A stretch of DNA of 64,000 nucleotides, from positions 64,001 to 128,000 of the IMG/VR virus record IMGVR_UViG_3300045988_151351; one strand, given 5' to 3'. Made by a program: the position numbers and the translations under genes. The DNA comes from a virus. The notes beneath the pieces were generated by a model, which saw only the letters and a list, made by a program, of their open reading frames with translations, ran no database searches and had not been told where the DNA came from. This document shows positions 2 to 50,886 of the stretch, one piece after another. How positions within the stretch are numbered: position 1 is the first letter of the stretch; each line of letters begins with the position of its first letter.

Positions 2-2668
2 CTTGATCCTATCCGCTGGGGTTTACCTTATTGGCGTTTTTTAAATAAAGAACGTGCTGAATTACCTGATATTGATATTGATCTTGCGCCAAGTAAACGT
101 CCTGCTATTTTTAAAGCAATTCGTGATGAACGTGGTGATTTAGGCTTAGTCCAAGTTGCTACATTTGGTACTGAAGGAACTAAATCTGCGGTATTAACAG
201 CTTGCCGTGGATATAGATCAGAAGATTTTCCAGAAGGTATTGATAATGATCAAGCACAATATATGTCTTCTCTAATTCCTCAAGAAAGAGGATTCTTATG
301 GCCAATTCATGATGTTGTTTATGGCAATGAAGAAAAAGACCGCAAGCCAATTCAAGCTTTTATTAGAGAAGTAAATCAATATGATGGCCTGTTAGATATT
401 ATTATTTATATTGAAGGTATTATTAATAAACGTTCTTCTCATGCTTCTGGTGTTATTTTATATGGTGATGATCCATTTGAAACAGCATCTTTTATGCGTA
501 CTCCCAGTGGTGATATTATCACTTGTTATGATTTGCATAAAGCAGAGGCAGCAGGCGATACTAAATATGATTTCCTTGTAACTGAAGCATCTGATAAAAT
601 AATTACTTGTTATCAATTACTATTAAAGGATAATCAAATCCCTGATTTACCTTTAAGAGAATTTTATAATAAATATATTCATCCAGAAGTAATAGACACA
701 ACAGATCAACGTATTTGGGATCACTTGGCGGCTGGCGATGTACTTGATGTATTCCAGTTCTCTACTGGAGTTGGATTAGCAATTGCTAAGAGATTAAAAC
801 CGCAAAATCCTATGGAAATGACGGCAGCAAATGCTATGATGCGTTTAATGTCTGAAAAAGGTAAAGAATCTCAGCAAGATAGATATTATCGAATTCAACA
901 TCAAGGTATTCAAGTATTCGACGCTGAAATGAAGCAAAATCATTTGCCACAAGATTTAATTGATAAATTTCATAAGCATTGTGATAAATATTATGGTTGT
1001 TGCCCTATTCAGGAACAAATGATGGAAATTCTTATGGATATTGCGGGATTTACTTTAGGTGAAGCAAATAGCGCTCGTAAAGTTGTTGCTAAAAAACAAA
1101 TGTCAAAGATTCCACAATTAAAAGAGCAAGTATTTAGTAAATTTGATGATCCTAAAGTTGCTGAATACTTCTGGGAAATTGCGGTTGCTCCACAATTAGG
1201 TTATGCTTTTAGTTTAAATCATTCTTTACCTTATTCTTTTGTAGCAATTCAAATGATTTATTTAGTAATAAATTATAATCCTATTTATTGGGATACCGCT
1301 TGTTTAATTGTTAATAGTGGTTCATTGGAAGATAATACGGAAGAAGAGCTAGTCGATATTTATGCTCCTGAAGGTGACGATTTAGCAAATGGTGTAACAT
1401 TTGAAGATTTACCAGATAAGAGCGCAAAAATTAGAAGAACTGCTTCAACTGATTATGGAAAAATTGCTAAAGCTATTAGTGATATTCAAAAAGCAGGTAT
1501 TGAAGTCGGTTTGCCAGATATTAATAAATCTAAGTTTGGTTTTGCTCCTGATATTGAAAATAATAAAATTCTTTTTGGATTAAAAGGAATGTTGAATGTT
1601 GGTGATGATTTAGTTAATACCATTATTACTAACCGTCCATATATTTCTCCAAAAGATTTTTTATATAGAATTAAGCCTAGTAAACAAGCTATGATATCTC
1701 TTATTAAAGGCGGTGCTTTTGATAATATGATGGATAGAAAATTATTAATGGGCTGGTATATTTGGGAAACTTGTGATAAAAAGAGTCGTATTACTTTACA
1801 GAATATGAGTAGCTTAATTAAATATAAATTATTACCAGAAGATACTGATAAGCAAATTATGGCTCGTCGTGTTTTTGAATTTAATAGATATTTAAAAGCA
1901 GTTTGTAAAGATACAGCAAGTTTTTATAAATTAGACACAAGAGCAATTAATTTCTTAGTTGAAATTGGTGAAGATAATTTAATTGAAGAGGGCACGAAGC
2001 TGGATCAAAAGATATGGGATAAAAAAGTCTATCAACCTTGGATGGATGTATTTCGCGATTGGATTAGCGAAAATAAAACAGAAATTCTTGAAAATTTAAA
2101 CGCAGTTATTTTTAAAGAAGATTGGAATAAATATACTGGTAAAAATAATTTATCAGCCTGGGAAATGGAAGTACTTTGCTTCTATTATCACAGTCACGAA
2201 TTGAAAGACATTAATAATAAAAAATATGGATTTGCAGATTTCTTTGCTCTTCCGCAAGAACCAGAAGTAGATAGAAGCTTCTCCAAAGGTGGTAAGACAA
2301 TTCATATCTATAAATTAAATACAATCTGCGGTACGTGTATTGCTAAAAATAAAACTAAAAGTACTGTTACTATTCTTACTACTACTGGTCCTGTTGAAGT
2401 AAAATTCAGAAAAGAATATTTCAGTTTATTTGATAAACAAATTTCAGAAAAAGGACCGGATGGAGTAAAACATATCGTCGAAAAGTCTTGGTTTAACCGA
2501 GGGAGTATGATTGTAGTTATGGGCGTGCGCCAAGGAGATAATTTTATAGCTAAAAAATATGCTTCTTCTCCTGGTCACCAGTTATATAAAATTGATGAAA
2601 TTTTTGATGATGGAACTATTACATTACGTAATACTCGTTATCAGGGAGGAATAGAAGAAGATGTATAA
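2..2668 (+). CDS. dnaE: DNA polymerase III alpha-subunit-like replicative polymerase, C-terminal part (5' end lies outside the window)
   Basis: The frame is open from base 2 and continues upstream of the track ORF 263..2668. Translation LDPIRWGLPYWRFLNKERAELPDIDIDLAPSKRPAIF...LVQVATFGTEGTKSAVLTACRGY recalls Pol III alpha core motifs (PDIDxD, GTExxKxA). About 890 codons contain no in-frame TAG. Confidence 0.7.
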   Translation, partial: LDPIRWGLPYWRFLNKERAELPDIDIDLAPSKRPAIFKAIRDERGDLGLVQVATFGTEGTKSAVLTACRGYRSEDFPEGIDNDQAQYMSSLIPQERGFLWPIHDVVYGNEEKDRKPIQAFIREVNQYDGLLDIIIYIEGIINKRSSHASGVILYGDDPFETASFMRTPSGDIITCYDLHKAEAAGDTKYDFLVTEASDKIITCYQLLLKDNQIPDLPLREFYNKYIHPEVIDTTDQRIWDHLAAGDVLDVFQFSTGVGLAIAKRLKPQNPMEMTAANAMMRLMSEKGKESQQDRYYRIQHQGIQVFDAEMKQNHLPQDLIDKFHKHCDKYYGCCPIQEQMMEILMDIAGFTLGEANSARKVVAKKQMSKIPQLKEQVFSKFDDPKVAEYFWEIAVAPQLGYAFSLNHSLPYSFVAIQMIYLVINYNPIYWDTACLIVNSGSLEDNTEEELVDIYAPEGDDLANGVTFEDLPDKSAKIRRTASTDYGKIAKAISDIQKAGIEVGLPDINKSKFGFAPDIENNKILFGLKGMLNVGDDLVNTIITNRPYISPKDFLYRIKPSKQAMISLIKGGAFDNMMDRKLLMGWYIWETCDKKSRITLQNMSSLIKYKLLPEDTDKQIMARRVFEFNRYLKAVCKDTASFYKLDTRAINFLVEIGEDNLIEEGTKLDQKIWDKKVYQPWMDVFRDWISENKTEILENLNAVIFKEDWNKYTGKNNLSAWEMEVLCFYYHSHELKDINNKKYGFADFFALPQEPEVDRSFSKGGKTIHIYKLNTICGTCIAKNKTKSTVTILTTTGPVEVKFRKEYFSLFDKQISEKGPDGVKHIVEKSWFNRGSMIVVMGVRQGDNFIAKKYASSPGHQLYKIDEIFDDGTITLRNTRYQGGIEEDV

Positions 2669-3233
2669 AATTGTAGCCATTATGGGCAAAGCAGGAAGCG
2701 GGAAGGATAGTCTTATGAAGGCTATCCTTCACCATGATACCGAAAAAAAATTAAATGAAATAATTAGTTATACTACTCGTCCAATTAGAGAAGGAGAGCA
2801 AGAAGGAATTAATTATCATTATGTTTCTAATGAAGAATTTTCTCAATTAGTATTAGAAAATAAAATGTTAGAAGCGACAGTATTTAACTCTTGGGGATAT
2901 GGTACTGCCATTAATTCATTAAATGAAAACAAAATTAATATTGGAGTATTTAACCCTGCGGGAGTTGAAAGCTTAATGAAAGATTCTCGTATTGATTTAA
3001 AAGTATTCTATATTGAAGCTTCAGACAAAGAAAGATTAATTCGTCAGCTAAGTCGAGAAAGCGATCCTAATATTGAAGAAATATTTAGACGTTTTAAAGC
3101 AGATGAAATTGATTTTTCTGATTTATCAGATTTTAATTATACTACTATTAATAATGAAATTAAAAAAGATTTTTATCCTGCTGTATATGCTATGGGAAGG
3201 CAAATCCGCGATTGGGCAGACGGATTTAATTAA
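2661..3233 (+). CDS. P-loop deoxynucleoside monophosphate (guanylate-like) kinase
   Basis: Walker A motif MGKAGSGKDS at the N-terminus. Size (190 aa) and position beside the polymerase and RNR resemble phage dNMP kinases. The start ATGA overlaps the polymerase stop. No TAG. Confidence 0.55.
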   Translation: MYKIVAIMGKAGSGKDSLMKAILHHDTEKKLNEIISYTTRPIREGEQEGINYHYVSNEEFSQLVLENKMLEATVFNSWGYGTAINSLNENKINIGVFNPAGVESLMKDSRIDLKVFYIEASDKERLIRQLSRESDPNIEEIFRRFKADEIDFSDLSDFNYTTINNEIKKDFYPAVYAMGRQIRDWADGFN

Positions 3234-3301: not shown

Positions 3302-5545
3302 ATGATTTATATTATAAAGCGCAATGGCACAATTGTTTTATTTGATAAAAATAAAATTATTAATGCTATTAATAAAGCATTTATTGAAGTTGATGGATAG
3401 CTTTATGAAAATGATACCGCTCAAGATATCGCTAATGATATTGAACGTCAAGTAAATTATTTCCCTGATGGTAGTGTAGGGGTAGAAGATATCCAAGATT
3501 GGATTGAAGATTATTTGATGCGCTCTGAGCGTCGTGATGTAGCTCGTGCATATATTAGATATAGATATAAAAAAGAAGTTGCTCGTGAAAAGAAAGATGA
3601 TTTTATTCAAGCCATTAGGAAAAAGCTTGATGGTAAAGATATTAAAAATCAAAATGCTAACGTTGATGAAGCATCATTTGGCGGACGTATTGGCGAAGCC
3701 AGCAGTGTAGTAACTAAACAATTAGCTTTAGATTATATCTTATCACCAATGGCAAGAGATAATCATTTAAATAATATGATTTATACTCATGATCTTGATG
3801 CTTATTATGTTGGTTCTCATAATTGTTTAAGTATTCCTTTTGATGATTTACTTGCTAATGGATTTAATACTCGCTAGACAGATGTACGTCCAGCAGGTTC
3901 AGTAAATACAGCTTTTCAATTAGTGGCTGTTATTTTCCAAATTCAAAGTCTTTCTCAATTCGGCGGCGTTAGTGCCACTCATCTTGATTGGACTATGGTT
4001 CCTTATGTAAGAAAAAGTTTTTATAAACATTGGAAAGACGGAATGCGTTATATTGAAAAAGTTGATTCATGTGGGAAAGCATCTAATCCAGAAAATTTAT
4101 CTATTGCTGATAATGGATATTTAGAATTTGAAAAAGCATATAAATATGCTATGGATATGACTATTAAAGAAGTCCATCAAGCAGTAGAAGGTATGTATCA
4201 TAATCTTAATACTTTACAATCTCGTTCAGGAAATTAGTTGCCATTTACCTCTATTAATTATGGTACTTGTACTCTTCCAGAAGGAAGAATGATTACTAAA
4301 GCACTTTTGGATGTATCTATTGAAGGTATTGGCAAATTACATAAAACTTCTATTTTCCCTTGCGGAATTTTTCAATGTATGAAGGGAGTTAACCGTGAAC
4401 CAGGTGACCCAAATTACGATTTGTTTAAACTCGCATTATAGTCCACCGCCCAAAGATTATATCCCAACTACGCGAATGTTGATTGGTCAGGGAATGCTGG
4501 ATATGATATCAATGACCCACGCACCTATTTTTCTACAATGGGATGTAGAACAGCCAATGGATACGATATTAACGGTTTCGGTCAGCTAAAAGATGGTCGT
4601 GGTAATATTTGCCCAGTAACTATTATTATGCCCACTTTAGCTATGGAAGCTAAAGAAATGGCAGATCATCAATATTTTGAAGATGGTTTAGATGCTCAAA
4701 AAGAACAATATCGTTGCAGATGTTTTATGAATTTATTAGATCAAAAAATTAATGAAGCAAGAATTCAATTGATGGAACGTTTTGACTGGATTTGCTCACA
4801 AGACCCAAAATCTGCAAAATTTATGTATGAAAATAATTTAATGGCAGGTTATATTCCAGAAGAAGGAATTAGAAGTGCCCTTAAGCATGGTACATTAGCT
4901 ATAGGATAGATTGGTTTAGCTGAAACTCTTCAAATTCTTATTGGATGCGATCATACTGATCCAAGAGGAATGAAAATGGCAAAAAAGATTGAAGAATTAT
5001 TTAAACAACGTTGTGCTGAATTTAAAGAAGAATATAAACTTAATTTTGGAGTATATTATACGCCAGCTGAAAATTTATGTTATACAGCAATGCAAAAATT
5101 CAAAGAAAAATACGGCATCATACCTAATGTTTCTGATAAAGAATTTTTCACTAATAGTATCCATGTTCCCGTATGGAAGAAAATTTCTCCCTTTGACAAA
5201 ATTGATATTGAAAGTCAGTTAACAGGTTATTCTTCTGCTGGATGTATTACCTATGTAGAATTAGATTCTACTGTAAAGCATAATATTGATGCTCTTGAAC
5301 AAATTGTTAATTATGCTATGGATAAAGATATCCCTTATTTTGCAGTAAATGTGCCTAATGATACTTGCCTTAACTGCGGATATTGTGATGAATTTAATGA
5401 TAAATGTCCTGAATGCGGTAGTACCAATATTCAATAGCTACGTCGTGTGACTGGTTATTTAACTGGAAACTACAAAACTGCTTTTAACTATGGTAAACAA
5501 AAAGAAGTAGAAGCACGAGTAAAACATACGGGGTAGATGGAATGA
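3302..5545 (+). CDS. nrdD: Anaerobic ribonucleoside-triphosphate reductase (class III RNR), read through 7 in-frame TAG codons
   Basis: Track ORFs 3515.., 3923.., 4238.., 4538.., 4970.. all lie in frame 2 and are separated only by TAG. Motifs are continuous: ...GFNTR-TAG-TDVRPAG..., SGN-TAG-LPFTSINYG, MGCRTANGYDINGFGQLKDGRGNICPVTI, and the C-terminal glycine-radical region RRVTGYLTGNYKTAFNYGKQKEVEARVKH. A GGAGG RBS sits 9 nt upstream of the ATG at 3302. The true stop is TGA at 5543-5545. Confidence 0.9.
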
Positions 5546-5889
5546 CACATTCAATTTATGATTTAGCAAACTATTTTAATTAGCAACAAGGAAGAAAATA
5601 TCCTTGTTCTAATTAGATAGTGATATGTGCTTATATAACTGATAATTCGCAAGAAGTTTACAATTATTTAGATAAAAATAATATTATACCAATCAGAATA
5701 TCAAAAACTCGTATAGAATGGCAAGAAAATAATGAGCGATGGATATGGTTACCTATAACTTAGAATACCAGAGGTTATAGATTTTATAAAATAAAAATAT
5801 CTAAAAATTATAATAATGAGGAAATATTAAAAACAATAATTATTCCTTATTGCAGCTTATATTGTTGTTCTTGGGAGGTTATGGAATGA
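5542..5889 (+). CDS. Small hypothetical protein (about 115 aa, 3 TAG codons)
   Basis: Hand translation in frame 1 from an ATG overlapping the nrdD stop gives MTHSIYDLANYFN(Q)QQGRKYP... The ORF ends at TGA 5887-5889. No ORF-track support, so this call is weak. Confidence 0.25.
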
Positions 5890-6563
5890 ATTATTCTAAA
5901 AGACCTTTAAAAAAGCATTAGAAAATAAAAGATAAATTAGAAAAAGCTACTGAAGTATTAAATAAAAAAATTGACTCGGAATTAGAGGCAATTATAAAAA
6001 AAATATTTTCTTGGATAGCTGATGATGAAAAGATTAATACAAAAGAACATCGAGATGATTTAATAAATTTATTTTATAAAGCTTTAGAAAATCTTTATTC
6101 TGAAATTAATATATAGTTAGGAAAGATTTATAAAACCGTAGCTCCTTTTAATTTAAAGGATATAACAGATTTAACTTTTCAAGAAGATGGAAAAACATTA
6201 GATGAGCGAATTACTAAATATTTAGATGATTTAGAAGAAAAAAGATTATCTGGTGATTTTCCAGATAATTTAAAAAGCTTTGGTGCTAATATGTATTCTC
6301 GTCTGTTAAATAATGAAGGTAGATATTTATTTACTCATTTAATGAAAATGAAAATAAAACCTGTAGCTTCAATACTTGTAATTGAAACAGGAACTTGCGA
6401 TGATTTATGCGGTGAATGGAATGGAGAATACCCTGCAGAAGAAGATGTTCCTCTTCCTCCCTACCATACTAATTGTTAGTGTTCTGCTTATTATATTGAA
6501 ACTGATGATGAAGATGATGTTAATGACTTAGATTTAGAAGTGGAGGAAGCAAAAAATATATGA
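5886..6563 (+). CDS. Hypothetical protein (about 225 aa, 3 TAG codons)
   Basis: Frame-0 ORF from ATG 5886: MNYSKRPLKKH-TAG-KIKDKLEKATEVLNKK... It joins track ORF 6291..6479, passes one more TAG and stops at TGA 6561-6563, overlapping the nrdG start as ATGA. Confidence 0.4.
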
Positions 6564-7048
6564 AATATGCAGGAATTATAAAAAATGATATTGCCGCAGC
6601 ACCTGGAGTATGTGTTTCATTCTTTGTTCAAGGTTGTCCTAATCATTGTAAAGGATGCCATAATCCTGAAACATGGGATTTTGATGGTGGTAAAGAATTT
6701 ACGAGTGATATATTTACTGAAATTACTCAAGCATTATAGGCAAATGGTATTCATCGAAATTTTTGTATAATGGGTGGCGAACCATTATGTGAACAAAATC
6801 AATTGCTTACTTTACTTTTGGTCCGTACTATAAAAGAAAAACTTCCTAATACAAAAATTTATGTATGGACTGGATATTATTATGATGATTTAATTAAACA
6901 AAAAGATAATGGAAAACTTCAAGAAATTCTTAGCAGTATTGATGTCTTGATTGATGGTCCATATATCCAAGAGCAAAGAGATGTATCATTGCCTATGCGT
7001 GGAAGTAAAAATTAGCATATTATTAATTTAAATTCAAATAAAAATTGA
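6560..7048 (+). CDS. nrdG: Anaerobic RNR activating protein (radical SAM), 2 TAG codons
   Basis: MKYAGIIKNDIAAAPGVCVSFFVQGCPNHCKGCHNPETWDF carries the CxxxCxxC cluster. The frame continues through TAG at 6737 and joins track ORF 6770..7015 (...CIMGGEPL...). The C-terminus reads RGSKN-TAG-HIINLNSNKN*, which matches the conserved NrdG RGSxNQ motif if TAG encodes Gln. Confidence 0.85.
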
Positions 7049-7073
7049 CGACTTTAAAATTTTTTGTTATAAT
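7045..7073 (+). promoter_or_regulatory. Sigma-70-like promoter with extended -10: TTGACG-17 nt-TGtTATAAT
   Basis: The sequence ttgacg actttaaaattttttgt tataat gives a near-consensus -35, 17-bp spacing, TG at -15/-14 and a consensus -10. It lies about 30 nt upstream of the GGAGG RBS and ATG at 7104. Confidence 0.5.
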
Positions 7074-7103
7074 ATATCTATAAAAAGAAATCGGAGGATT
7101 CAA

Positions 7104-7643
7104 ATGGAAAATTTTAAAGTTAGTTTTGAAGTGAAGAATATTCACGAATTAGAAAATTCTCCTTAGAATTTCTATGCTGGATAGGTTTGCTATGATTAGG
7201 ATAATCAAAAATTAATGGTATATAAAGATTCTAAGTGGATTCCATTAAATAATAATGCTAAATTAAATGCAGAAGGTTCAGGCATTGAGATTAATTTATA
7301 TGATTTAAATAAAAATATTATGTCTCAATTAAAGCCTTTATCAGATGAAAAACTCAAAGAATTAAAGAAATTAATTTTAACCTTTGATGATACAATAGAT
7401 AATACTTACTATATGTTATTATGCCGAGAACGAAATTATTATACAATGTTCGTTAAAAGTGGTTGTATTGGTATTAATGCTATTAATGAAAGTGTTATTG
7501 ATTGCTTACATGATTTAGGTGAAATAGTAAGTGGCGAATTAACTGAAGACAAAATAGCGATTGAATTCTGGATTAAAGCAGATGATACTGCTTATTGCGT
7601 TTATTTCTTTGGTTATGATGCTGGCGTAGTGGAGTGTGTATAA
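7104..7643 (+). CDS. Hypothetical protein (about 179 aa, 3 TAG codons near the N-terminus)
   Basis: A GGAGG RBS at 7094-7098 precedes ATG 7104. Translation MENFKVSFEVKNIHELENSP-TAG-NFYAG-TAG-VCYD-TAG-DNQKLMVYKDSKWIPL is in frame with track ORF 7215..7643. Confidence 0.45.
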
Positions 7644-7912
7644 TGGATACAAAAATTGTTGCTATCATTGATTTATTTGATAGTGAATAGAAAGTATATA
7701 AAATCTCTCCAAGCGAACAATCTCTTTTAGGAAAATATTCTTTAAATGATATTAACTCATTCGCTATGGAGATTTTACACAATTGTTATAATTATAAAAT
7801 TAATGATATTCATTTCTTTGGATAGACAAATTATATTGAAGAAATTGTAGAATCAATTAATAATGTAAATAGAAATAATTATTCTTTAAATTTAAATATA
7901 GAGGTTAATTAA
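7643..7912 (+). CDS. Small hypothetical protein (about 89 aa, TAG codons)
   Basis: ATG at 7643 overlaps the previous stop. Translation MDTKIVAIIDLFDSE-TAG-KVYKISPSEQSLLGKYSLNDINSFAMEILHNCYNYKINDIHFFG-TAG-TNYIEEIVESIN... ends at TAA 7910-7912. Confidence 0.3.
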
Positions 7913-8157
7913 ATGAAATATTTAATCAGTACAACAGATGTTTATAGAGTTCCAACAGTAGCAGAAGTAGAATAGTTACATGAAGAATTAATTAATGATA
8001 CTCATTTTACTTTAAATGCTTTTAGTTATAAGACTAAACAAATTAAGCAGAAGGGCGAAATCATTGATGAATATCAACTAGTTACTGCTAAGAAATTATT
8101 TAATGATGAAAAAGAACCCGGTACAAATATTGATATTAAGTATGAGGTAGAATTTTA
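7913..8157 (+). CDS. Small hypothetical protein (about 81 aa, 2 TAG codons)
   Basis: MKYLISTTDVYRVPTVAEVE-TAG-LHEELINDTHFTLNAFSYKTKQIKQKGEIIDEY-TAG-LVTAKKLFNDEKEPGTNIDIKYEVEF*. The reading is tight against both neighbours. Confidence 0.3.
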
Positions 8158-8688
8158 ATGAATAGATTTGAAAGAGTTTCAAGATTTCCCGACGCAGTTC
8201 TCCCTATTCGTAAGACAGCAAATTCTGCGGGTTATGATTTAACAGTCGCAGAAGATATTGTAATTCCTCCTTTATCTAAGCACATTTAGGCATTAGATGT
8301 TGATTAGGAATATGGTATTACAACGATGGATTTGACTGAAATGGCTGCTTTAACTAAATCTAAGAAAGCTAAACCTACTCTTGTTTCTACTGGAGTTAAA
8401 TGTCAATTAAATCCTGATTGCTATTTGGAATTATCTGTGCGCAGTTCTACTCCTTTAAAATATTGGCTAATTTTAGCTAATAGTGTGGGTATTATTGATT
8501 CTGACTATTATAATAATCCTGATAATGAAGGAGAGATTTTTTTACAATTAATTAATCTCTCTCCATATAATATCCAATTGCATAAAGGTGATGTAATTGG
8601 ACAAGGCATTATTAAAAAGTATGAGATTACTGATGATGATAATGCTACTGGGAATAGACTTGGAGGCTTTGGTTCTACGTCTAAATAA
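8158..8688 (+). CDS. dut: dUTP diphosphatase (dUTPase), 2 TAG codons
   Basis: MNRFERVSRFPDAVLPIRKTANSAGYDLTV...I-TAG-ALDVD-TAG-EYGITT... is then in frame with track ORF 8326..8688. That ORF carries the RSS, GIIDSDYYNNP and GNRLGGFGSTSK dUTPase motifs. Confidence 0.85.
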
Positions 8689-8722
8689 TAAAATTTGTCT
8701 CCTTGTCAGAAAGGAGGTAAAT

Positions 8723-9235
8723 ATGAATATTTTATTTTTAGATTTATCTACTAAATCTACTGGATATTGTATTTCTGATGATGCTGGTAAAATGATTACT
8801 TATGGTTTAATTACAGCATCATCAGAAAATAATATTTCAAGAATTGTTAAAATACAAACTGAAATTACAAAATTAATCCAATAGTATAAGATAGAAAAAA
8901 TTATAGCAGAAGATGTTCATCCCGAAGAATATGGTTACTCAGATACTGCAAGATTATTAATGTGGCTTTAGGGCGCAGTTATGTTAGGTGCGCATTCAGT
9001 TAATTCTAAAGTAAATTCTAAAACTTTAGAATTAATGTAGGCTAACGAATGGCGCCGTCAACTAGGAATTAAAGTAGGCCGTGGTATTAAACGATCAGCT
9101 TTAAAACCTTTAGATATTTAGTATGTAAAAGAACATTATGGTATTGAAGCAAATGATGATGTTTGTGATGCTATATGTTTATTTACTGCTTATTTCCTCG
9201 CGCAGTAGCAGCAAAATGATTATAATTGGGAGTAA
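8723..9235 (+). CDS. ruvC: RuvC-like Holliday junction resolvase, about 5 TAG codons
   Basis: MNILFLDLSTKSTGYCISDDAGKMITYGLITASSE... has the LDLSTKSTGY catalytic Asp motif. It continues EDVHPEEYGYSDTARLLMWL-TAG-GAVMLGAHSV...DDVCDAICLF (second acidic motif). It lies in frame 2, as does track ORF 8597..8884. Confidence 0.75.
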
Positions 9236-9312: not shown

Positions 9313-9756
9313 ATGGCCACTTTTATTGCTGAACATTTTATTGAAATTATTTTTGGACTTATTTCTGCTGGACTATTAGCATTTTGTAAATCAATTCATG
9401 GTAAAATGAAAAAGTATCAAGCAATGGTTGAAGAGCAGAAAAATGATGACCTAGATGAAAAAATTGAATCCCATATTGAGCCTATTAAAGAAGAAATAGA
9501 AGATTTGCGAAAATATATTAGAGAAGCAAAGACTATTGAAGAAAGTCATATGGAATTAATTATTGCATCTTACCGTTTTAGACTAACTCAATTGTGTCGT
9601 GCTTATTTAAAAAAGGGATATATGACTTCTAATGAGTATGAACAATTAACAGAGTTTTATAAAGTTTATCATGGGTTAGGCGGCAATGGGCAAGCCAAAA
9701 CTTATTATGATAAAACAATAAAATTACCAATTCAGCATGAAGAGCTTCCAAAATAA
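9313..9756 (+). CDS. Hypothetical protein with an N-terminal transmembrane helix (147 aa, no TAG)
   Basis: Track ORF with an AGGAGG RBS upstream. The hydrophobic N-terminus FIAEHFIEIIFGLISAGLLAF is followed by a charged, coiled-coil-like region. Confidence 0.5.
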   Translation: MATFIAEHFIEIIFGLISAGLLAFCKSIHGKMKKYQAMVEEQKNDDLDEKIESHIEPIKEEIEDLRKYIREAKTIEESHMELIIASYRFRLTQLCRAYLKKGYMTSNEYEQLTEFYKVYHGLGGNGQAKTYYDKTIKLPIQHEELPK

Positions 9757-12864: not shown

Positions 12865-13569
12865 ATTATCATAGTTTCAATATGTATTTGTGATAGAGAT
12901 GATTCACATGGATAGTCAATGATTACTATTATTAAAGATTATTTGTTTAAACATAATGTAATGGGAAGTATAAATTATTTTAATAATGCTAAAGATTTAT
13001 TAAGACAACCAATCTATGACGTCTATTTCTTAGATATTTTAATTAGAGATATGAATGGCATTGAGCTTGGAAAAATATTAAAACAAAAAAATGAAAAATG
13101 CGAAATAATTTATATAACTGATTAGCGTAATTATGGACCACAAACCTATGAAGTAAAGGCATTTAATTATTTATTAAAACCTATAAATATAGAAGAAATA
13201 AATGATACTTTAGATAGATTATTTGAAAAAATTAAAAGTGAATATAGATATTTAAGAACTAAAGATGGGGAAGAAAGAATTCCACTTAAAGAATTATTAT
13301 ATGCTGATATTATAGGAAGAAATTTAACTTGTCATTTCTATGATGGTGAATTAATTCAAAGTACAACTTTAAAAAAATCTTTTGAAAAAATGATAGGTCC
13401 TTTAAAAGATAATCCAGATTTTGTCTTTGTTGCACCGAGTTTATTAATTAATTTAAATTATATTAGTTCAATGAACTTAAACTATTTAACTTTTACTACT
13501 GGTGAAGTATTATATTTCCCAAAGAGCGCGTATAAATTAATTTGTGAAAGATGGAAGCAATATAGTTAA
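12865..13569 (+). CDS. LytTR-family (AgrA/LytR-like) response regulator: receiver domain plus LytTR DNA-binding domain
   Basis: Translation ...IIIVSICICDRDDSHG-TAG-SMITIIKDYLF...YDVYFLDILIRDMNGIELGK (receiver with a phospho-acceptor Asp) runs through TAG 13123 into ...IPLKELLYADIIGRNLTCHFYDGELIQSTTLKKSFEKMIGPL...FVFVAPSLLINLNYI (LytTR fold). An AAAGGAGGAG RBS at 12855 is followed by no in-frame ATG, so the gene needs a non-canonical start (ATT/ATC/ATA near 12865). Confidence 0.6.
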
Positions 13570-13614: not shown

Positions 13615-14031
13615 TTATGATTTATTAATATTAACACTTGCTTCTATCTTTTCAGAAATATATTTATCTAAATCACCATAAATATTAGCAAGATAATCTT
13701 TTGCTTCTTGGCTAAGAATTGTTAATACTGCTTGCGTAGTTTGTTCAAATGCTTGCTTTTGAGCTTCTGCATCAAATTTGCCTTGTTTCTTTAGACTTTC
13801 TACATAAGTCTAATTCGTAGCAATAACACAACTATTAATTGTGTCAGTTAGCATTTGAATATATTTATTTGCTAATGCATTATCATTATTCTTTTGAATT
13901 TGATTACTTTTTACATTAATCCATTTAATAATAAAAGTAGTCAATACTCCTAATAATGGAATAATACATACTTGAAAAATTTGAGTTAGTAATTCACTAG
14001 TCATTATTATTTCCTCCTTAAGGTGTTCCAT
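13615..14031 (-). CDS. Putative holin (Phage_holin_1-like), 1 TAG codon
   Basis: Track ORF 13810..14031 has a TM segment (LLTQIFQVCIIPLLGVLTTFIIKWI) followed by ...SCVIATN-TAG-TYVESLKKQGKFDAEAQKQAFEQTTQAVLTILSQEAKDYLANIYGDLDKYISEKIEASVNINKS*, resembling Gram-positive phage holins (NQTYV...LKK.GKFD motif). It is the last gene of the minus-strand late region. Confidence 0.5.
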
Positions 14032-15088
14032 AAATAGTACAAGTCATATCATATCTAGCGCTTGGACTATTATTTAATAAAATTAATTCACAAAATTTTT
14101 GTGATGAAGTACTTGATTCATAACATCTACCAACAGCATAAATTCTCATTGTTCCTCCTGTTTGAGAATAATTTAATAATTCTAAGGTAGATATACCATA
14201 TAGGGTAGTTCTAGAACTATTTTCACAAACACAATATCCTTCAAAACCTTTTGATTTAATCTGTGCTAAAGTTACTCCGGAGGGATCCCCTCCTTTAAAA
14301 GATAACATATGATATGTTCCAGAGTTATAATCTGTATTAACTTTAATTGCAATAGAATAAATAGTAGAAGGTAATGCTCCTCCAAATGAAAAATTCAAAT
14401 ATCCTCCGTTACCATTACCTTCATTATAAAAGCTTGATACAGTTCCAGTATATAATTTAGCACTAGATAAAGTTCCAGTTACTCCAAAAATATTTACTCC
14501 TGATTTAATATTACTAGCAATTAAATTGCTGCTTCCAGATACAGTAATATTTCCAGTAGCATAAGAACCAGAAGCAATAGCAGTCTAAGAACTTGTGCTT
14601 GGAGTAATAGTTCTACCATTAACAGAAGGTATTGTTCCTGTTACTTTTACTCCAGAAGCAGAAGTAAATGTTTTGCCAGTAAGTACATCGGCGGCAGTTG
14701 CATTACCAAAATCTGACTTTGGAAAAACACATCTTGTATGCGCTCCTGCTCTATATAATTTTGGATTATTAAAAGGATATTTAACATAATAATATGTTGA
14801 ATCCTAAGTTCTTAAATAATCAGATAATGAACCAGATTTTTGTTCATATCCTGTTACAATTGGTATTGTACCTGTTATTTTTTCACCATTCACATAGGCT
14901 GTTTTACCTTGTCCAATATCTTCTGCAATGGCAGTTGCATCTGAAGTATCTATGCCTGTTTCAATATTTTGTATCAAATTAGGCATATCTTGAGCATTAA
15001 TTTTATTAGACGTATTAGTTTTTTCTCTAATAGCATCTCCAATTCCTGTTAACAATTCAGGGACTGTACTATAACTCATTATTTCCAT
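14018..15088 (-). CDS. Tail-fibre-like protein (about 356 aa)
   Basis: Track ORFs 14804..15088 and 14018..14398 share a frame and are joined by TAG codons. Gly/Ser/Thr-rich beta-type sequence (GTIPSVNGRTITPSTSS..., NFSFGGALPSTIYSIAIKV...). The start overlaps the upstream gene stop. Confidence 0.45.
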
Positions 15089-16812
15089 TTACCTCCTATC
15101 GCTGTAAATAATTCTATTTCTTTCCATTCATTATTTACTCCATAATATAATTTACATTCTTTCCACTCTTTATCTTTTCCAAAATAAATTTTTTTCTTAA
15201 AAACAGGATATAAATAAAGGTTACTCGGTTCGGTTCTAGTATATGTTGTATTAACTTTATAAGTTACTGTACTACTTCCTTTAGCTGTTGAATATCCTAA
15301 AAATTCACAACCTTCTAAATACTATTCATTTGGATAAATAGTAAAAGTTGCTGAAGAATAACAAGCATTATTAGTATTAGATGACCATTTAGCATATAGC
15401 TAAGTAGCACCATTAGACATAATAAAATTAGTATCTGAAGTTGAATAACTACCTCCTGGAGTAAAATTTACTCCACTTCCTGTATTTGTAGTATTCCAAC
15501 TGGATAAAGTATAAGTAGTTTTAGGTTTATACTAAACATAATTAGTATGCAAAGGAGTAGTATTATCTGACTTATATCTAATTATGGAATAGGTTGTTGT
15601 TTCCGATCCCCATACTGGTGATTTTGTAATAGAAGAAGATGATGGCATAGTAATAGTCTAAGCAATATTGTTATAATATGTTAAAGCATTAGCTGTACCA
15701 CTACCTCCATTAAGATTAAATGATAAAGAAAAATACCAAATTCCATATAAACTTAAAGAATCCTAATCAGTAGATATCGTAGCTCCTTTAGCATATTTAG
15801 GAGTTGTTGCGTTTTTATTAGTACTCCATCCTTTGAATATAAAATTAGTAGGATTGGACCAAGTAGGTGGAGTCATTGTATTTGCTCCTGTATTTGTATA
15901 AGTCCCTAAAAGAGTGCCAGTATTATTATAAAATGACATAGTCCCTTTATAAGGGGTAAATGTTAATGTATAAGGAATATAAGTAGATCCACTACCACTA
16001 AAAGCTAAATTAAGTGCTACATAATAAGTTCGACTACCTAAGAATTTTTCACTATATTTTACTTCACAGTCATATGATACGCTAGGATCCTTATCATCAT
16101 TTTTCTCAGTATCATTATTATCATATACAAAAGATGCATCACGTGATTGCCCTGGAGCTCCTTGACTTGGTTCAGTTTTAGTAATATAGCCATAGGGATC
16201 TGGACTTTTACTTCCAATAGTAGTTGTAAAAGTAAGAGTTCCTCCACAAGGAACTGTTACATTAAAATAAGATGCTCTATAATAATATACTTGTATAGAC
16301 CCACTATAACTTGAAGTATTTTCCGTATTTGTTATTCTTCGATCCGCAGAATAATGATAAGGAGCAATCCAAGAAGTATAAGTATCATTATAATCTCCAT
16401 AAGGTGTATCATAATAATCTCTATAAGGTGTATCATCATAATCTCTATAAGGTGTATCATCATAATCTCTATAAGGTGTATCATTATAATCATTATATGA
16501 AGCAGGTGGATACTAAATATGGTCCTAATCAATGTCACCACCTATACCGTCCTATACAGAAGCTCCATAGGTAGTAGTGGTTGAAAGATTACGTCCTGAG
16601 AATGTAATAGTAACAGAACCAGAATTAGAATAAAATATTAATCCATTACGCCCACTAGTTAGAGAACCGCTAGACGCAGTAAAATTCGTAGTAGCACCTT
16701 GGTTAATTTTTGGATAAATATATATTTGACCACTAGAACAATTTCGCCATGATGCAAGAATTGTAATTGAACTTCCACTAGCTGACTATAAAGATACAGA
16801 AATTGAAGCCAT
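15078..16812 (-). CDS. Tail-fibre / receptor-binding-like protein (about 578 aa) with internal DYDDTPYR tandem repeats
   Basis: An AGGAGG RBS precedes ATG 16812. Continuous hand translation MASISVSL(Q)SASGSSITILASWRN...PYRDYDDTPYRDYDDTPYRDYYDTPYGDYNDTYTSW...TFTTTIGSKSPDPYGY... contains about 12 TAG codons. It ends at TAA 15078-15080. Confidence 0.5.
16385..16480 (-). repeat. In-frame 24-bp tandem repeat (about 4 copies) encoding (D-Y-D/N-D-T-P-Y-R/G)n
   Basis: Visible on the + strand as tctctataaggtgtatcatcataa repeated with minor variants. It lies inside the fibre gene 15078..16812. Confidence 0.7.
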
Positions 16813-16815
16813 ATA

Positions 16816-17778
16816 TTATCCTCCTTCCTTATTTATAGAACTAAAAGCTAAACACCCGCCCTAACAAGATAAATTATTAAATTTTTTACAATTTTTACAT
16901 TTATCATTTTGTCCGTTAGCTTCTCTTTTAGGATAGATTGTTTTAAATAAAAAATAATTTGAAACTTCATTAATATTATCAAACTAATGCAAATCTATTA
17001 AACCATAAGCGCCAAAACAACAAGTTGCTTTAAAATCCGGAGTAATATCTATAACTGGTTTACATAAAGTTTTCCAATGAATTACATTTTTTTTTAAAAA
17101 AGCTAAATCATCTTCTTTAAAATAACAAGCAGGTATCATATTACAATCAATGCGCAATTCAATATTATTTTTATAGGCTAACTAATTTAATTCTAATAAT
17201 TGTGGGATACCATTATTGTAATATTCATCTTTATCTACTTGACTATATTGGCAAGTAGGAGCAGCATAACTAATTCTTAAATTATTTTTTTTATATTTTT
17301 TACATAATTCAATTATATAATTAAAATCCTATAAATCTGGGTATATATTAATACCAAAATTAATTTGATTTAATAGCTAATTTTTTTCAAAATTATTTAA
17401 AGTTTCTATAATACTATTATAATTACTTTCTGACATAGTATTTGGAGCATTCAAATTTATTAAACTAGATAAAGCAGAATGATTTTTAAAACTATTTAAA
17501 TATTTGTCTAAATAAATCCCATTAGAAAAAATAGTAACATTTTTTAAATCATATAATTTATCAAAACAAATATCTATATATTCTGCTAGGCAGGGATGTA
17601 AAGTAGGTTCTCCTCCTATAATACCAATTCTATTACAAGGAGTCTAATCTAAAAAATCTAATATAGTTAATAACTATTCCTTTGTTATAAGCTATTTTTC
17701 TTCCTCTGTAATAAATTTATTAGCAAAACAATATGGACACTATAAATTACAATAATTTAAAAATGCAATATTAGGCAT
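16816..17778 (-). CDS. Radical SAM enzyme with a SPASM/twitch-type C-terminal Cys cluster (about 320 aa, about 8 TAG codons)
   Basis: MPNIAFLNYCNL-TAG-CPYCFANK gives CX3CX2C if TAG encodes Gln. GIIGGEPTLHP is the GGE(P) SAM motif. The C-terminus ...NDKCKNCKKFNNLSC-TAG-GGCLAFS* is SPASM-like. The RBS lies within the upstream gene, which ends TAATATTGC over this ATG. Confidence 0.7.
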
Positions 17779-19045
17779 TATTTATTTTATCTCCTTCTAA
17801 TTTTTTTATTTCTTTTAAATTAAAAAAATTATTTTCTATTAAAATTTGCTTTAAAATAGGATTTATATTATCATATTTTAAATTAATATTTTTAATTAGA
17901 TCGTATAAAATATCATATAATTTTTTATTAAAAATGCAATAATCTTCATTGAAAGATAATTTTCCTGTAGAAAAATATTCTTTTATACATCCACCATAAC
18001 AAATATCATAATAATCACATTTTCCTTTACAATGTGTTAAAATTATATCATCAATTTTATTAATATAATCCTAATAAGTTGGTAAAGATATTAATTCTTC
18101 AAAAGAATTAATATCTCTAATATTACAAAAAATATTTTCTTTATTAACATATCCACAATGAGTAATATCACCATTAGGTAAAATTACTATCCATTTACCA
18201 ACACAATAAGTTGTATAGCATTTCCCTCTACGGCCTAATAGACATTTAATACGATTTGTAATTCCTTGATCTTCAATAGGATTGTCTGTATCATATATCC
18301 AATACCTAAAATATTCTGTAATTAATTCTAAATCTTCTTCATTATCAATATCTATTAGCATATTATTTGAATTACTATCTAATAATTTTATATCTTTAAT
18401 AAAATTCCCCTAAAAGCCATGAACATTTAATGTTTTTAAATATTCATAATTTTCAATTAAATCTTTTAAATGGGGTTTATCATACACACATATAAAACCT
18501 TTATGAGTATTTTTTAAAATAGGTTCCATGGCTAAAGTAGATTGTAGTCCTCTAGTCTCAGTATTATATATACCATTATATGAAAGTCCATATTTTATAT
18601 GATATTTTTCAAGTAATGGTAATTTATCTTCTAATAAAATTCCATTACTTTGTAAAGAAATAGGAAAATTTAAATTATATTTTTGTTTTTGCTCAGATAA
18701 ATATATTAATAAATCTTCTGGCAATAATAAAGGTTCTCCACCATGCCAAGTAATTTCTCGAATATGAGAACCAAATTTAGTAAGAATCTAATCTAATAGT
18801 TCTTTAGTTATAATCTAATCTTTATATTCATATCTAATAAACTAATTTTCACAATAAGGACAATTAGCATTGCATTCATAAGAAGCATGTAATAAAATTA
18901 ATACATTATCTATAGTATGAAATGACATATCATCTACTAACTATAAATCATCTAATTTAGATAATAATTCATTTTTATATTTAACTTTATAGGGCTAAAT
19001 ATGATTATACTTTAACCATAATTTTTTTTCTTCTTCGTATGTCAT
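17771..19045 (-). CDS. Radical SAM / SPASM-domain enzyme (about 424 aa, about 7 TAG codons)
   Basis: Start MTYEEEKK at 19045. Motifs ...LHASYECNANCPYCEN (CX3CX2C), ITWHGGEPLLLP, ...HCGYVNKENIFCNIRD...CKGKCDYYDICYGGCIKEY (auxiliary-cluster cysteines). Track ORFs 18410..18724 and 18071..18361 are in one frame joined by TAG. It ends at TAA 17771. Confidence 0.7.
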
Positions 19046-19285: not shown

Positions 19286-19828
19286 TTAATAACTGTTATT
19301 CACTAAACCATTAACATAAGTATAAACTGCTCTTGCCGTTGGAACTTGACTATCTCCAGAACTTGAATTTATTACTGTGACTACTGGAAATGTAGTTCCT
19401 CCCGAGGATGATGAATCTCCATTATTATTACTAAGAGATAAATAAGGAAAACAAATAAAATTAAAAATATCTCCAATTCTAGTCTTATAATTACTTCCCA
19501 CTAAATTAATTTCAGTTTTATTTGTATTTAAAGTATAATTTTCCATTTTATTTAATAATAAACCATTCTAAAATACTAATAATTGTTTTTCATCAATTAT
19601 TTCTATTGTATTAGGAATGGGAATAGTCTAAGTTATCTCTGATATAATTACTGTTTCATTTATTAAACTTTTATAAAATAATCCTTGAGAAATAGCTGTT
19701 TGTAGATCATAAGTAGAGCCGTTTATATCAATATAAACGGCTCTACCAAGAGTCTACGGGAAAATAGGATTTTTATCATTATCATGCTATTCTGTGGTCT
19801 ATAACAATTTAATATATTCTTCATTCAT
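19286..19828 (-). CDS. Hypothetical structural-module protein (about 180 aa)
   Basis: Track ORF 19286..19546 extends upstream through 4 TAG codons to ATG 19828 (MNEEYIKLL(Q)TTE(Q)HDNDKNPIFP...). Its start overlaps the stop of the giant glycine-rich gene. Confidence 0.4.
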
Positions 19829-22800
19829 TTTGTGTTAGCCACCTTCCATTATAATTAACTTGAAAATCTTTAATTAATTTCCATTCATTATTTATTTTAA
19901 CATAAGTATCTTTAATACGATACCATTCACCATTATCTTTTATATATTCATCAGTTGGGCCATCTAAAACAGTAATAATTATAACTCCATCTCCATAATT
20001 ACCAATTCGTGTATTTAACTAATCTGGCTATAGAATTTTTTCCTAACCAGTTTTAGAAATAGTATCTGATAAATAATAATTTGGTGTTAATAAGCATCCA
20101 GAAGGATAATTAACCGCAGTAGAAGAAGTATAAACATAATTTGAACCGCCTCCACCGCCGCTACCCAATTGGCTTGTATCAGTAGTGTAAGTTCCAGCAC
20201 CGCCATACCAGCCACCACCACCAGCGCCAGAAACAACACCAATTCCAATAGCTCCACTTTTTATAGTTATACCATTTCCACCAAATCCAAAGCCACCATA
20301 ACAGTCTAATTGAGTAGAATAACTATTTGACTAAGTATCTTTTATCCAATTATTATTTACACCAGTTTGATTTCCACCATAACCACCACTAGTAGTACCA
20401 CTATTATATAAAGTAGCATTTAAACCTCCACCAGCACCGCCTTGGTATCCTTTATATCCACCTTCTGAACCGCCACCGCCAGCGACTATTACTCTAGCAT
20501 AAAGAGAATTAGAACCAATTCTTATATCAGTTCCTCCACCACCAGCAGGATAATTTTGACGTTTTCCACCGCCATTGAATCCTCCAGCAATACCAGATCC
20601 TCCTACTCCAAACCATATAGGAGTAGTTTTAGTTAAAGTTAATACGCCAGATGTATAACCACCTCTATTATTTCCAGTACTATTATCGCTATAATAATTT
20701 CCAGAAGCAATTCCACCTTGAGCACCCCAGCATTCTAGTTTATAACGTCCAGGAGGAAATGAAAATGGTCCTATTACTGCGCCATTTGGCGTTTCAAAAT
20801 TGCCCATAAAAGTACTAGTCTAAGGAATAATAATCTATTTTCCCTTTTTAATAACACAATTATAAGGAGATGAAATTACTTTAACTACGATACTTTTTGA
20901 GATATGCGCATAATTGCTATCATTATTATTATTTACAGTAATCGTAGCACGACCAATTTTATTAGCTTGTACAGTAATCCCTCGACCTTGATTATCACCA
21001 GCAATTAAATCTCCTATTGATACTATTGTATTATCATCTGATGCAAATGATAAGTTACTATAATTACCATTATACAATACTGCTAAATTAACAGAATTTT
21101 CAACAACAATATAATGAGGATCCTAAATCTATAAATATGAAGTAGCAGGATTTATCTGCCACTCTATAGTTTTATTGCTAGTTGTTCCATCTGACCATTT
21201 AGTATTTGTAGTATCTATTAAAGAAAGAACCGTTGTATAATTTCCTGCATTAGAAGCTGAAGTTGTTCCACCATTTATTGAATAAAGAATATCATAATCA
21301 GAATTATCATATAATATATCGCTAGCAAAATACCATGTATTTCCATTATATTGAATAGTTGTCTAAGGTTCAGGGATTAACACTGGAGTATATGATAAAT
21401 TCTCATAAGTCATTGTAAAATATGGAATTCGTTTTGTTAAGCCAGAAATCTAAGTCTAATCTGGACTATAACAATACATATATATTAAATCTCCAGCTTT
21501 TAAAGCAACCTCAAAAGATACAGTTCTTTGTTCCTAAGTAATATAATAATACTAAAAATTATTTCCATTTATCTATATACTAAATTGACTCATCCAATAA
21601 GAACCTATATCATCAAGATTTACTTCTGCCCCAAAAGTAAATTTAATTTTTACATTTTTCTTTACTCTGCCTCGATAATAAGCATAAAAACCAGTAAGAG
21701 GAGTTTTATTAGTTTCATATCTAGATGTATTAGAATTATAATAAAAACAATTATCATAATCACTAATATTTTCAACACCTTCATCAACATTTAACTAAGT
21801 AATACGCACATAACCAGTACCATTATGTCCCGTTTCAGATGAACCTGTTGGAGAAGTAAATGAAACATTTCCTCCGATAGTCTAAGCATTTTCAAGATAA
21901 TATTTACTATCTAATAAACATCCAGATGGATAACTAGTAGCAGTTGATGAAGTATATACATAACCGCTACCTCCTCCGCCGCCTTGATTATCAGCTCCAG
22001 TTCCAGAAGAAGGTGGAGAAGTTAAATTGGAAACAGTTAAACCACCATACCAGCCGCCGCCACCGCCACCACCATCATAAGCATGACGTCCTTGACCAAA
22101 ACCTCCTCCTGAAGTTTGACTTCCTCCAGCAGCACCACCAGTACCACCTGATAGTCCTCCGCCATAACCGACTGAATCACCACTATCTTCTCCGCCACCT
22201 CCGCCGCCACCGGCCACAATCACACGAGCATAAAGAGAAGTAGAATTGATACGAATATCAGAAGCACCACCACCGCCACATCCTGGTTCTGAGCTACCAG
22301 ATCCCCAAGCTGATCCACCACCATTATATCCTCCTGAAGACAAAGATCCATATCCAACAGCTCCAATTCCACCACTATAGCAATGTAATGTAGTAGGTCT
22401 TAATAAAGTAAGATTACCATAAGAATACCCTCCTAGTCCTCCAAGACCTGCGGCTGAATTACCATCTTGTTGTCCTCCTCCTCGAGCACCCCAACATTCT
22501 AATTTATATTTACCAGGATTAAATTTTTTGCTATAAGATCCTGAACCGGAAATATTTAAATCATTAGAAACATATCCAATTGATAAAACAGTAATGCGTA
22601 CATAGCCATTACCACTATGACCAGTTTCAGAAGCACCAGTAGGTGAAGTGAATGATGTATTACCAGCAATAGTATTTCCACTTGTTAAATCGTATTCATT
22701 TTGGTATACGTTAAAGCTATAATATCCGCTGCCGCCTGCATTTTGTTCTCGATAAGTACTATCATTATCATTATAGCCAGTCTAGGCACCACCGCCATAC

Positions 22801-50851: not shown

Positions 50852-50886
50852 AGGTGAGATCCATTAAGAATCTCACCTTCATTTTA
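50852..50886. terminator. Intrinsic terminator hairpin downstream of the tape-measure gene
   Basis: aaggtgagat ccattaag aatctcacctt. On the minus strand it is followed by TTTTCTTTTTGGG. Confidence 0.5.

Follow-up and report, generated by a model that had tools for sequence, protein, structure and literature searches.

Reassignment of the TAG stop codon to glutamine (Gln), denoted genetic code 15 or translation table 15, has been reported for phages of the crAss-like, Lak and "gemstone" clades. Several gemstone clades mix codes 11, 15 and 4, some recoded phages match recoded hosts (the code 25 phages of Absconditabacteria), and a switch of code during infection has been proposed (Borges et al., bioRxiv 10.1101/2021.08.26.457843). 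Proof of Gln at TAG by mass spectrometry has been published for crAss-like phages only (PMC9523058), and phAss-1 has been published as a TAG-recoded human-gut phage with three Sup-CTA tRNAs (PMC10607447; GenBank OQ749652). NCBI holds a taxon named "Caudoviricetes code 15 clade". This report concerns TAG codons in a 64,000-nucleotide (nt) stretch, hereafter the window, of IMG/VR record IMGVR_UViG_3300045988_151351 (positions 64,001-128,000), and in particular the genes at 3302-9235, among them those of an anaerobic ribonucleotide reductase (NrdD), its activating enzyme (NrdG) and a dUTPase.

A first-pass annotation of that region had read TAG as a sense codon, most likely Gln, throughout the genome. 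With a probability of about 0.9, an uncultivated tailed phage here uses TAG as a Gln codon and terminates its genes only with TAA or TGA. What is found in this locus is what marks code 15 elsewhere: TAG inside conserved genes, recovery of coding density, alignment of TAG to Gln, and termination by TAA and TGA alone. The phenomenon is already published; this lineage is a further code-15 case, and its relatives have already been translated with code 15.

TAG within the genes of the window

With a greedy, non-overlapping gene set, table 11 yields 65 genes that occupy 36.5% of the window (mean length 120 amino acids, aa), compared with 43 genes, 94.1% and a mean of 467 aa when TAG is sense. The corresponding densities are 40.4% with TGA as sense and 65.7% with TAA as sense. 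Table 11, against which the first-pass annotation had set table 15, is thus much the poorer of the two. The share of the window that falls within stop-to-stop open reading frames (ORFs) no shorter than 100 aa rises from 46% with table 11 to 96% once TAG is read as sense. Reading TGA as sense gives 49%, and reading TAA as sense 87%, the latter made up of 213 overlapping ORFs. In 20 composition-preserving shuffles of the window, coverage with TAA as sense already reaches 52%, so that the 87% is an artefact of a G+C content of only ~30%; with TAG as sense the shuffles average 8% and never exceed 12%. The longest stop-to-stop ORF is 3,132 codons with TAG as sense and 888 under table 11.

The coding frame of 45 genes holds 358 TAG, 0 TAA and 0 TGA codons, and the other two frames of the same genes hold 2,474 TAA and 1,522 TGA. 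In-frame TAG is present in 36 of the 45. Their terminators are 37 TAA and 8 TGA, none being TAG, and with 94% of the window coding, genes are not followed by long non-coding stretches. That TAG is a sense codon in this genome is near certain. Relic TAG terminators just upstream of the real stops were considered and rejected, since a TAG lies 2-4 codons before the true stop in 5 of 45 genes, where ~4.6 are expected by chance.

The genes of 3302-9235 are broken by table 11 into fragments of 30-155 aa, as had been said of the ORF track, and each becomes a single ORF when TAG is sense. The features of this plus-strand region and its flanks are as follows.

2-2668, + strand: C-terminal 888 codons of a DnaE-type DNA polymerase III alpha subunit; no TAG, readable in the standard code
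2661-3233, + strand: guanylate-kinase-like (deoxynucleoside monophosphate kinase) gene; TAG-free, ends TAA; orthologue matches Pfam Guanylate_kin
3302-5545, + strand: anaerobic ribonucleotide reductase NrdD, 747 codons; 7 in-frame TAGs, ends TGA
4235-4237, + strand: diagnostic TAG at NrdD residue 312 (SGN-TAG-LPFTS), from alignment to homologues
5542-5889 and 5886-6563, + strand: two hypothetical genes with 3 TAGs each, both ending TGA; no Pfam match
6560-7048, + strand: NrdG activating enzyme (radical S-adenosylmethionine, SAM), 162 codons; 2 TAGs, ends TGA; matches Pfam Fer4_12
7013-7015, + strand: diagnostic TAG in the NrdG motif RGSKN-TAG-HIIN, from alignment to homologues
7104-7643, 7643-7912 and 7913-8158, + strand: three small hypothetical genes with 3, 2 and 1 in-frame TAGs
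8158-8688, + strand: dUTPase, ends TAA; TAGs at 8287-8289 and 8305-8307; Pfam dUTPase E = 3.8e-13, PDB 3h6x E = 7e-30
8723-9235, + strand: candidate RuvC-like resolvase, ends TAA; 5 in-frame TAGs; weak Pfam RuvC match
9313-9756, + strand: TAG-free gene of 147 aa with an N-terminal hydrophobic segment; matches PHROGs families without assigned function

The seven NrdD TAGs begin at nt 3398, 3875, 4235, 4439, 4907, 5435 and 5534, in contexts that include FNTR-TAG-TDVRPAG and SGN-TAG-LPFTSINYG. The Pfam NRDD model aligns in one stretch through all of them (model positions 2-562 of 562, E = 6e-142), and Fer4_12 does likewise on NrdG (4-137 of 137, E = 4.8e-38). Together the two genes present what defines a class III anaerobic ribonucleotide reductase, that is, an ATP-cone, an NRDD core and a Gly_radical domain in NrdD with an adjacent radical-SAM activase (Pfam PF03477, PF13597, PF01228 and PF13353). 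The NrdD and NrdG motifs quoted in the first-pass annotation, the TAG-only interruptions of the dUTPase and RuvC-like genes, and the terminators (TGA for NrdD and NrdG, TAA for the other two) were all recovered where it had placed them. Its naming of RuvC held less well: the ORF with its five TAGs is real, but the Pfam RuvC match (E = 2.5e-4, 21.4 bits) falls just below the 22.2 cut-off, and the assignment of 8723-9235 is a weak one.

Relatives of the phage (whose loci carry L numbers below) have intact counterparts of these genes. The two hypothetical genes at 5542-5889 and 5886-6563 are each called as one gene in L001 (115 and 225 aa), orthologues of the three small genes at 7104-8158 are intact in L001 and L005, and the DnaE orthologues of the same two loci match Pfam PHP, DNA_pol3_alpha, DNA_pol3_finger and HHH_6. 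In the stop-to-stop ORF of the kinase gene all three TAGs lie upstream of the start codon.

The amino acid specified by TAG

When the window NrdD was aligned with 150 representatives of 50%-identity clusters, residue 312 was opposite Gln in 127 of 133 cluster representatives, and in 82 of the 88 among alignments of less than 45% identity. In NrdG, where the first-pass annotation had called the Gln of RGSxNQ invariant, that residue was Gln in all 8 homologues sampled, which come from seven standard-code phages (T4, phages of C. difficile, Vibrio, Salmonella and Campylobacter, and two E. coli phages) and from phAss-1. A PDB search with NrdG returned only matches to the N-terminal part of pyruvate formate-lyase (PFL) activase, with the TAG sites outside them. 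The expectation that Gln would dominate opposite TAG was thus borne out at NrdD 312 and at this NrdG site. The other six NrdD sites are variable (H/Q/N, K/E/R, F/Q/Y, R and others), and the dUTPase sites are uninformative, both TAGs lying within a lineage-specific insert and hence being silent on the amino acid.

A wider comparison was made with 27 same-clade relatives that use the standard code, a site being taken as conserved when it was at least 80% identical in at least 10 of them. Ten of the 12 conserved window TAG sites are Gln in these relatives, one is tyrosine (Tyr, 13/15) and one lysine (Lys, 12/14); none is glutamate (Glu) or serine (Ser). In the structural-module gene at 63268-63999, four TAG sites are Gln in 27/27 relatives and a fifth in 23/27, and in the long gene at 50884-60216 Gln is invariant at sites 25, 219 and 437. 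Opposite TAG the residues rank Q, then E, S, K, A, D, a profile like the one opposite CAA and CAG. A ranking by BLOSUM62, which named the correct residue for 10 of 10 control codon sets, scores TAG as Q 83.9, E 61.0, K 30.2 and S 14.2. Among TAG-using relatives, TAG is replaced most often by CAA, which is two substitutions away, and then by AAA and GAA. Gln amounts to 2.5% of residues from CAA and CAG alone, and to 4.3%, a normal level, once TAG is counted. From these alignments TAG is very likely to encode Gln.

The suppressor tRNA and competing explanations

The first-pass annotation had deduced that a suppressor tRNA, of the phage or its host, must be encoded outside the window, and this part of its reasoning finds support in the clade. 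A DNA pattern drawn from the anticodon and T arms of the phAss-1 suppressors matched 118 IMG/VR stretches, and five of the contigs also carry orthologues of window genes. One of them, IMG/VR contig 110853 (196 kb), has a tRNA with the anticodon CUA, tRNA(CUA), in a tRNA cluster roughly 55-75 kb from the window-equivalent region; the genes it shares with the window are ~77-85% identical in nt sequence, and its virion protein is 93% identical in aa sequence. In 20 of 20 clade contigs with a readable cluster, tRNA(CUA) occupies the slot between tRNA-Val(UAC) and tRNA-Tyr(GUA); 15 of these contigs, most of them 180-198 kb, were fetched from ENA, Logan and NCBI by way of a small ORF adjoining the tRNA. 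Since all carry tRNA(CUA) in the same slot, a phage-encoded amber suppressor appears to be a constant feature of the clade, and by analogy we infer that the window's own genome carries it as well. Two forms of the tRNA occur.

90-nt form, with an extra stem-loop in the variable region and the loop motif YCTGAAG: L385:9078-9167 (- strand), L407:3369-3458, L381:7965-8054, L492-L495 and L498; phAss-1 62445-62532 belongs to the same family
73-nt form, with an ordinary variable loop and an atypical T-loop (ATCGACA): L484:9694-9766, L485-L491, L496 and L497

Both fill the tRNA-Val/tRNA-Tyr slot and so behave like alternative alleles. The YCTGAAG motif is conserved in 17 distinct aligned sequences from many unrelated IMG/VR phages, phAss-1 included, and RNAalifold predicts for the 90-nt family a cloverleaf with a 3-bp extra helix and some compensatory changes. 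The identity set of E. coli glutaminyl-tRNA synthetase (GlnRS) consists of a U1-A72 or unpaired first pair, G2-C71, G3-C70, G73 and a short variable loop. Both forms of tRNA(CUA) have a Gln-like acceptor end, with U1 unpaired or facing A72, G2-C71 and G73; at 3-70 the closest form has C-G, where others have G-C. We regard it as a tentative possibility that the suppressor represents an uncharacterised, widespread family of phage tRNA(CUA), whose extra arm, as an identity element or anti-determinant, could permit Gln charging independent of the anticodon or could give protection from host defences. A further ARAGORN call, "tRNA-SeC(tca)" at L385:7726-7805, L491:4046-4125 and L497:4046-4125, falls within a 676-aa ORF, and its acceptor stem is poor; we take it for a probable false positive and reject it as an opal suppressor.

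In the mechanism we favor, a tRNA(CUA) of the clade type, encoded outside the window, would read UAG in the window's phage, a host enzyme would charge it so that Gln is delivered, and it would outcompete host release factor 1 (RF1) at UAG. Genes that avoid TAG, namely DnaE, the kinase and a TAG-poor, early-looking block upstream in relatives, could then be translated by unmodified host machinery before the suppressor accumulates, and TAG-containing genes would be fully expressed only afterwards, according to the timing model of Borges et al.

The use of TAG is indeed uneven, and the first-pass statement that TAG is sense "throughout" the genome fits 36 of the 45 window genes but passes over the fact that some genes avoid it non-randomly. 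TAG makes up 41% of Gln-type codons (TAG, CAA and CAG) across the 45 genes. DnaE has 0 TAG against 36 CAA/CAG (binomial P = 5.9e-9), with 1 TAG in ~1,330 codons of its full-length orthologues, and the virion protein at 62246-63244 has 0 against 12 (P = 0.0018). The kinase (2661-3233), a chaperone-like gene (60346-60879) and the small hydrophobic protein (9313-9756) are also TAG-free. The TAG share is low in NrdD (7 of 35 Gln-type codons) and high in a protein of 1,632 aa, and in relatives the genes farther upstream of the window-equivalent region are mostly TAG-free. This pattern partly fits the published idea that early genes are kept in the host code, and avoidance of TAG in a highly expressed late protein suggests that the efficiency of suppression also shapes its use.

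Several observations weigh against the reading of TAG as Gln by way of a clade-type suppressor. The fit to the timing model is not a clean one: nucleotide-metabolism genes contain TAG just as late genes do, and a highly expressed late gene and the hydrophobic protein at 9313-9756 avoid it. The bulk score of Glu is only moderately below that of Gln (61 vs 84), because many TAG sites are poorly conserved. No tRNA was found in the 64-kb window by ARAGORN or Rfam, and none was seen in relatives, either in the stretch just past the window end or in an upstream walk through primase, DnaB, ligase, gyrase, endolysin/holin, a PhoH-like gene and a mostly TAG-free block. The contigs that do bear the tRNA are either ~77-85% identical in nt sequence in shared genes or not directly linkable to the window, and the link between suppressor and window is indirect, as the contig of the nearest relative ends before the tRNA cluster. 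The isotype of tRNA(CUA) could not be read from similarity to 451 other phage tRNAs, and the long extra arm with G73 of the 90-nt form is otherwise the architecture of a tRNA-Ser. Reading of ORFs by eye around the tRNA cluster, along with the precomputed Pfam labels of the orthologous genes in L484-L498 and no dedicated profile search, brought no release-factor or synthetase gene to notice; RF2 and GlnRS, for which the first-pass annotation had suggested a search of the rest of the genome, were thus not seen in an incomplete search.

Might TAG be sense but encode some other residue? Glu could be delivered by a non-discriminating glutamyl-tRNA synthetase (GluRS) without amidation, Ser by a seryl-tRNA synthetase (SerRS) that recognises a long arm with G73, and Tyr by a supF-like tRNA, and pyrrolysine is suggested by the default label "Pyl" that ARAGORN gives to CUA tRNAs. 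Glu does stand second in the BLOSUM test (61.0 vs 83.9), one form of tRNA(CUA) has a type-II-like extra arm and G73, and one conserved TAG site is Tyr and another Lys in relatives. The conserved sites are nevertheless 10 Gln with 0 Glu and 0 Ser, so that Glu, second in bulk, prevails nowhere; NrdD 312 and the NrdG site are near-invariant Gln, and Tyr makes up only 17 of 1,368 residues opposite TAG in the standard-code relatives. The second allelic form has an ordinary variable loop. The architecture of tRNA-Pyl is compact with a very short variable loop, unlike tRNA(CUA), whose variable region is normal or enlarged. No pyl genes came up in a search that was partial and not systematic, and UAG, which aligns to Gln, is used 358 times in 36 genes instead of being confined to a few. 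Another residue is therefore quite unlikely. A dual meaning, in which TAG terminates early or in some contexts and is partially read through late to give truncated and full-length products, draws on the standard-code host with RF1 that is likely because the same clade includes standard-code relatives, on the significant avoidance of TAG by several genes, on the five genes with TAG 2-4 codons before the real stop, and on the switch of code in infection proposed by Borges et al. Those TAGs near gene ends are at the chance level, however, and essential enzymes together with a 3,110-codon gene containing 91 TAGs require efficient read-through. Unlikely as it is, a dual meaning would be compatible with decoding of TAG as Gln and is no alternative to the sense meaning of TAG.

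The apparent fragmentation of genes under table 11 might also be put down to damage, whether in pseudogenes, a decaying prophage, or errors of sequencing or assembly. Against this, only one of the three stops occurs in frame (358 TAG, 0 and 0), protein sequence is conserved through the TAGs with no frameshifts, and 199 TAG positions are common to independently assembled relatives from other samples. The frame-specific stop counts exclude damage or assembly error, to which the shared positions add, and the chance left to it is vanishingly small. The host itself might read TAG as Gln, with the phage merely matching the code of its host, as is known for the code 25 phages of Absconditabacteria (Borges et al.). 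Close relatives of the phage, however, use the standard code or a TGA-sense code, the clade has its own tRNA(CUA), and DnaE and upstream genes avoid TAG, all of which makes such a match highly improbable. We know of no bacterium in which TAG is Gln.

Relatives, remaining genes and implications

The window belongs to the ~190-200-kb genome of a tailed phage that has not been cultivated. The tail genes are siphovirus-like in appearance, and the nearest cultured relatives (Enterococcus EF1-like, Lactococcus 949-like and C. difficile phages) suggest a host among the Bacillota. The NrdD of a Thomasclavelia phage is 68.5% identical to that of the window. NrdD relatives at 84-98% identity sit on 185-201-kb metagenome contigs and are full-length in the protein database with Q at the TAG sites; translation of their loci with table 11 fails to reproduce these proteins, which must therefore have been called with code 15. 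In the 50%-identity library, NrdD homologues of 900-1,400 aa are numerous. Gene content includes DnaE, primase, DnaB, RecJ, gyrase, ligase, NrdDG, a ~3,100-aa tape-measure gene and SPbeta-type YomU/YonG domains. Megablast of 9 kb against GenBank phages gave no match. The TAG-free virion protein at 62246-63244, used as a query against IMG/VR, found 315 relatives. The contig of the nearest relative, IMG/VR 3300026522_000023 (99% identity), stops short of the tRNA cluster; the 198-kb ENA contig XIAO16-1 scaffold_16 matches at 95.7% identity over 16 kb, and SRR24139529 is among the samples that contain this phage. The cluster of the small ORF beside tRNA(CUA), P0295, includes a member with the RefSeq name "hypothetical protein [Dialister succinatiphilus]" (WP_444210097.1), which either points to the host or stems from phage sequence that was binned with a bacterial assembly.

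Relatives with 58-73% identity in that virion protein use a standard, a TAG-sense or a TGA-sense code, so that the genetic code has evidently switched repeatedly within the clade.

TGA-sense relatives: L016, L022, L067, L080, L083
Standard-code relatives: L017, L023, L024, L026-L046, L048, L060, L084

Relatives also vary by mobile insertions (L001:42-833; L192:6838-7548; L269:6214-6957; L477:5388-5894), among them GIY-YIG homing endonucleases that split DnaB and GyrB, an HNH endonuclease that splits NrdD in Thomasclavelia phage TR-TP1, and a SAM-synthetase-like gene, which in L001 is an accessory insertion also found in unrelated small phages.

As in the crAss-like and Lak phages, TAG here aligns to Gln, TAA and TGA are the only terminators, G+C is ~30%, a suppressor tRNA(CUA) is phage-encoded (seen here in clade relatives), and a subset of genes is compatible with the standard code. 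Unlike Crassvirales and Lak phages, the virion and replication genes resemble those of large Bacillota siphoviruses (Enterococcus EF1, Lactococcus 949); TAG is frequent in nucleotide-metabolism genes, and no RF2 was seen in an incomplete search. With phAss-1 the window or its clade has in common NrdD (40.7% aa identity), NrdG, DnaE, primase, RecJ, gyrase, the virion protein (~46-50%), a ~3,100-aa tape-measure gene, TAG recoding, and a Sup-CTA tRNA of the same long-arm family. The phAss-1 genome is smaller (136 kb vs ~190-200 kb), there is no nt-level match, gene order is partly shuffled, and phAss-1 has two suppressor tRNAs directly upstream of nrdD, where the window has a 68-nt gap without a tRNA. 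Membership in the proposed genus Phassvirus was considered and rejected: with no megablast match, 25-50% protein identity and a rearranged gene order, the two are relatives at a higher rank only. The Jade and Sapphire clades (Borges et al., ~150-210 kb) are alike in genome size, in that close relatives variously use codes 11, 15 and 4, and in having recoded structural and lysis genes with variable use in replication genes; assignment to either clade goes by placement in a large-terminase phylogeny with at least 95% bootstrap support, and the window holds no terminase gene. TAG-bearing genes are ~80% here, against a mean of 26% reported for Sapphire. In classical amber suppression, such as that by E. 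coli supE (tRNA-Gln CUA), too, a tRNA with the anticodon CUA and a Gln-like acceptor end (U1, G2-C71, G73) inserts Gln at UAG against RF1. Here, however, suppression would be the normal decoding of hundreds of codons, by a tRNA that is phage-encoded and structurally unusual (extra arm or atypical T-loop).

Beyond the plus-strand genes, near ~9.7 kb, GC skew changes sign, and the rest of the window is a block on the minus strand.

9789-64000, - strand: TAG-rich block of virion, tail and lysis genes, with ORFs of 1,344, 2,591 and 1,632 aa among them
13615-14031, - strand: holin with 1 TAG (PHROGs)
50884-60216, - strand: candidate tape-measure protein, 3,110 codons; 91 in-frame TAGs, no TAA or TGA
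62246-63244, - strand: TAG-free virion structural protein, 332 aa; PHROGs phrog_2729 "virion structural protein", E = 1.6e-55
63268-63999, - strand: structural-module gene, 243 codons, complete (ATG to TAA); 8 in-frame TAGs

The gene at 50884-60216 probably encodes the tape-measure protein; it is homologous to the region of phAss-1 that holds its 3,149-aa tape-measure gene (PMC10607447). The protein at 62246-63244 is probably the major tail protein, from its position upstream of the chaperone-like and tape-measure genes. A lone plus-strand gene (12919-13569) is embedded in the block, and its L001 orthologue matches Pfam Response_reg, which hints at a phage-encoded response-regulator-like protein. 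At 16816-17778 and 17771-19045, on the minus strand, two neighbouring radical-SAM genes (PHROGs), flanked by Gly/Ser-rich giant proteins (15079-16812 and 19821-23855), may form a module for protein or peptide modification. In relatives (L269:1738-3526) a lysis cassette is found upstream of the replication genes: an endolysin gene with 7 TAGs, then a holin-like gene without any.

The default bacterial code loses or fragments ~60% of the coding capacity of this phage, and annotation, host prediction and protein clustering must therefore use TAG as Gln. The case extends the known code-15 phages to a large phage lineage that probably infects Bacillota, and leaves the understanding of TAG recoding itself unchanged. 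A role of the extra arm, if true, would explain how UAG comes to mean Gln in phages of GlnRS-less Bacillota. Genes that avoid TAG (DNA polymerase, a major virion protein) can be used as a test of the proposed code switch in infection. The standard, TAG-sense and TGA-sense relatives within one clade would, on that reading, be a natural series for reconstructing how a change of code is acquired.

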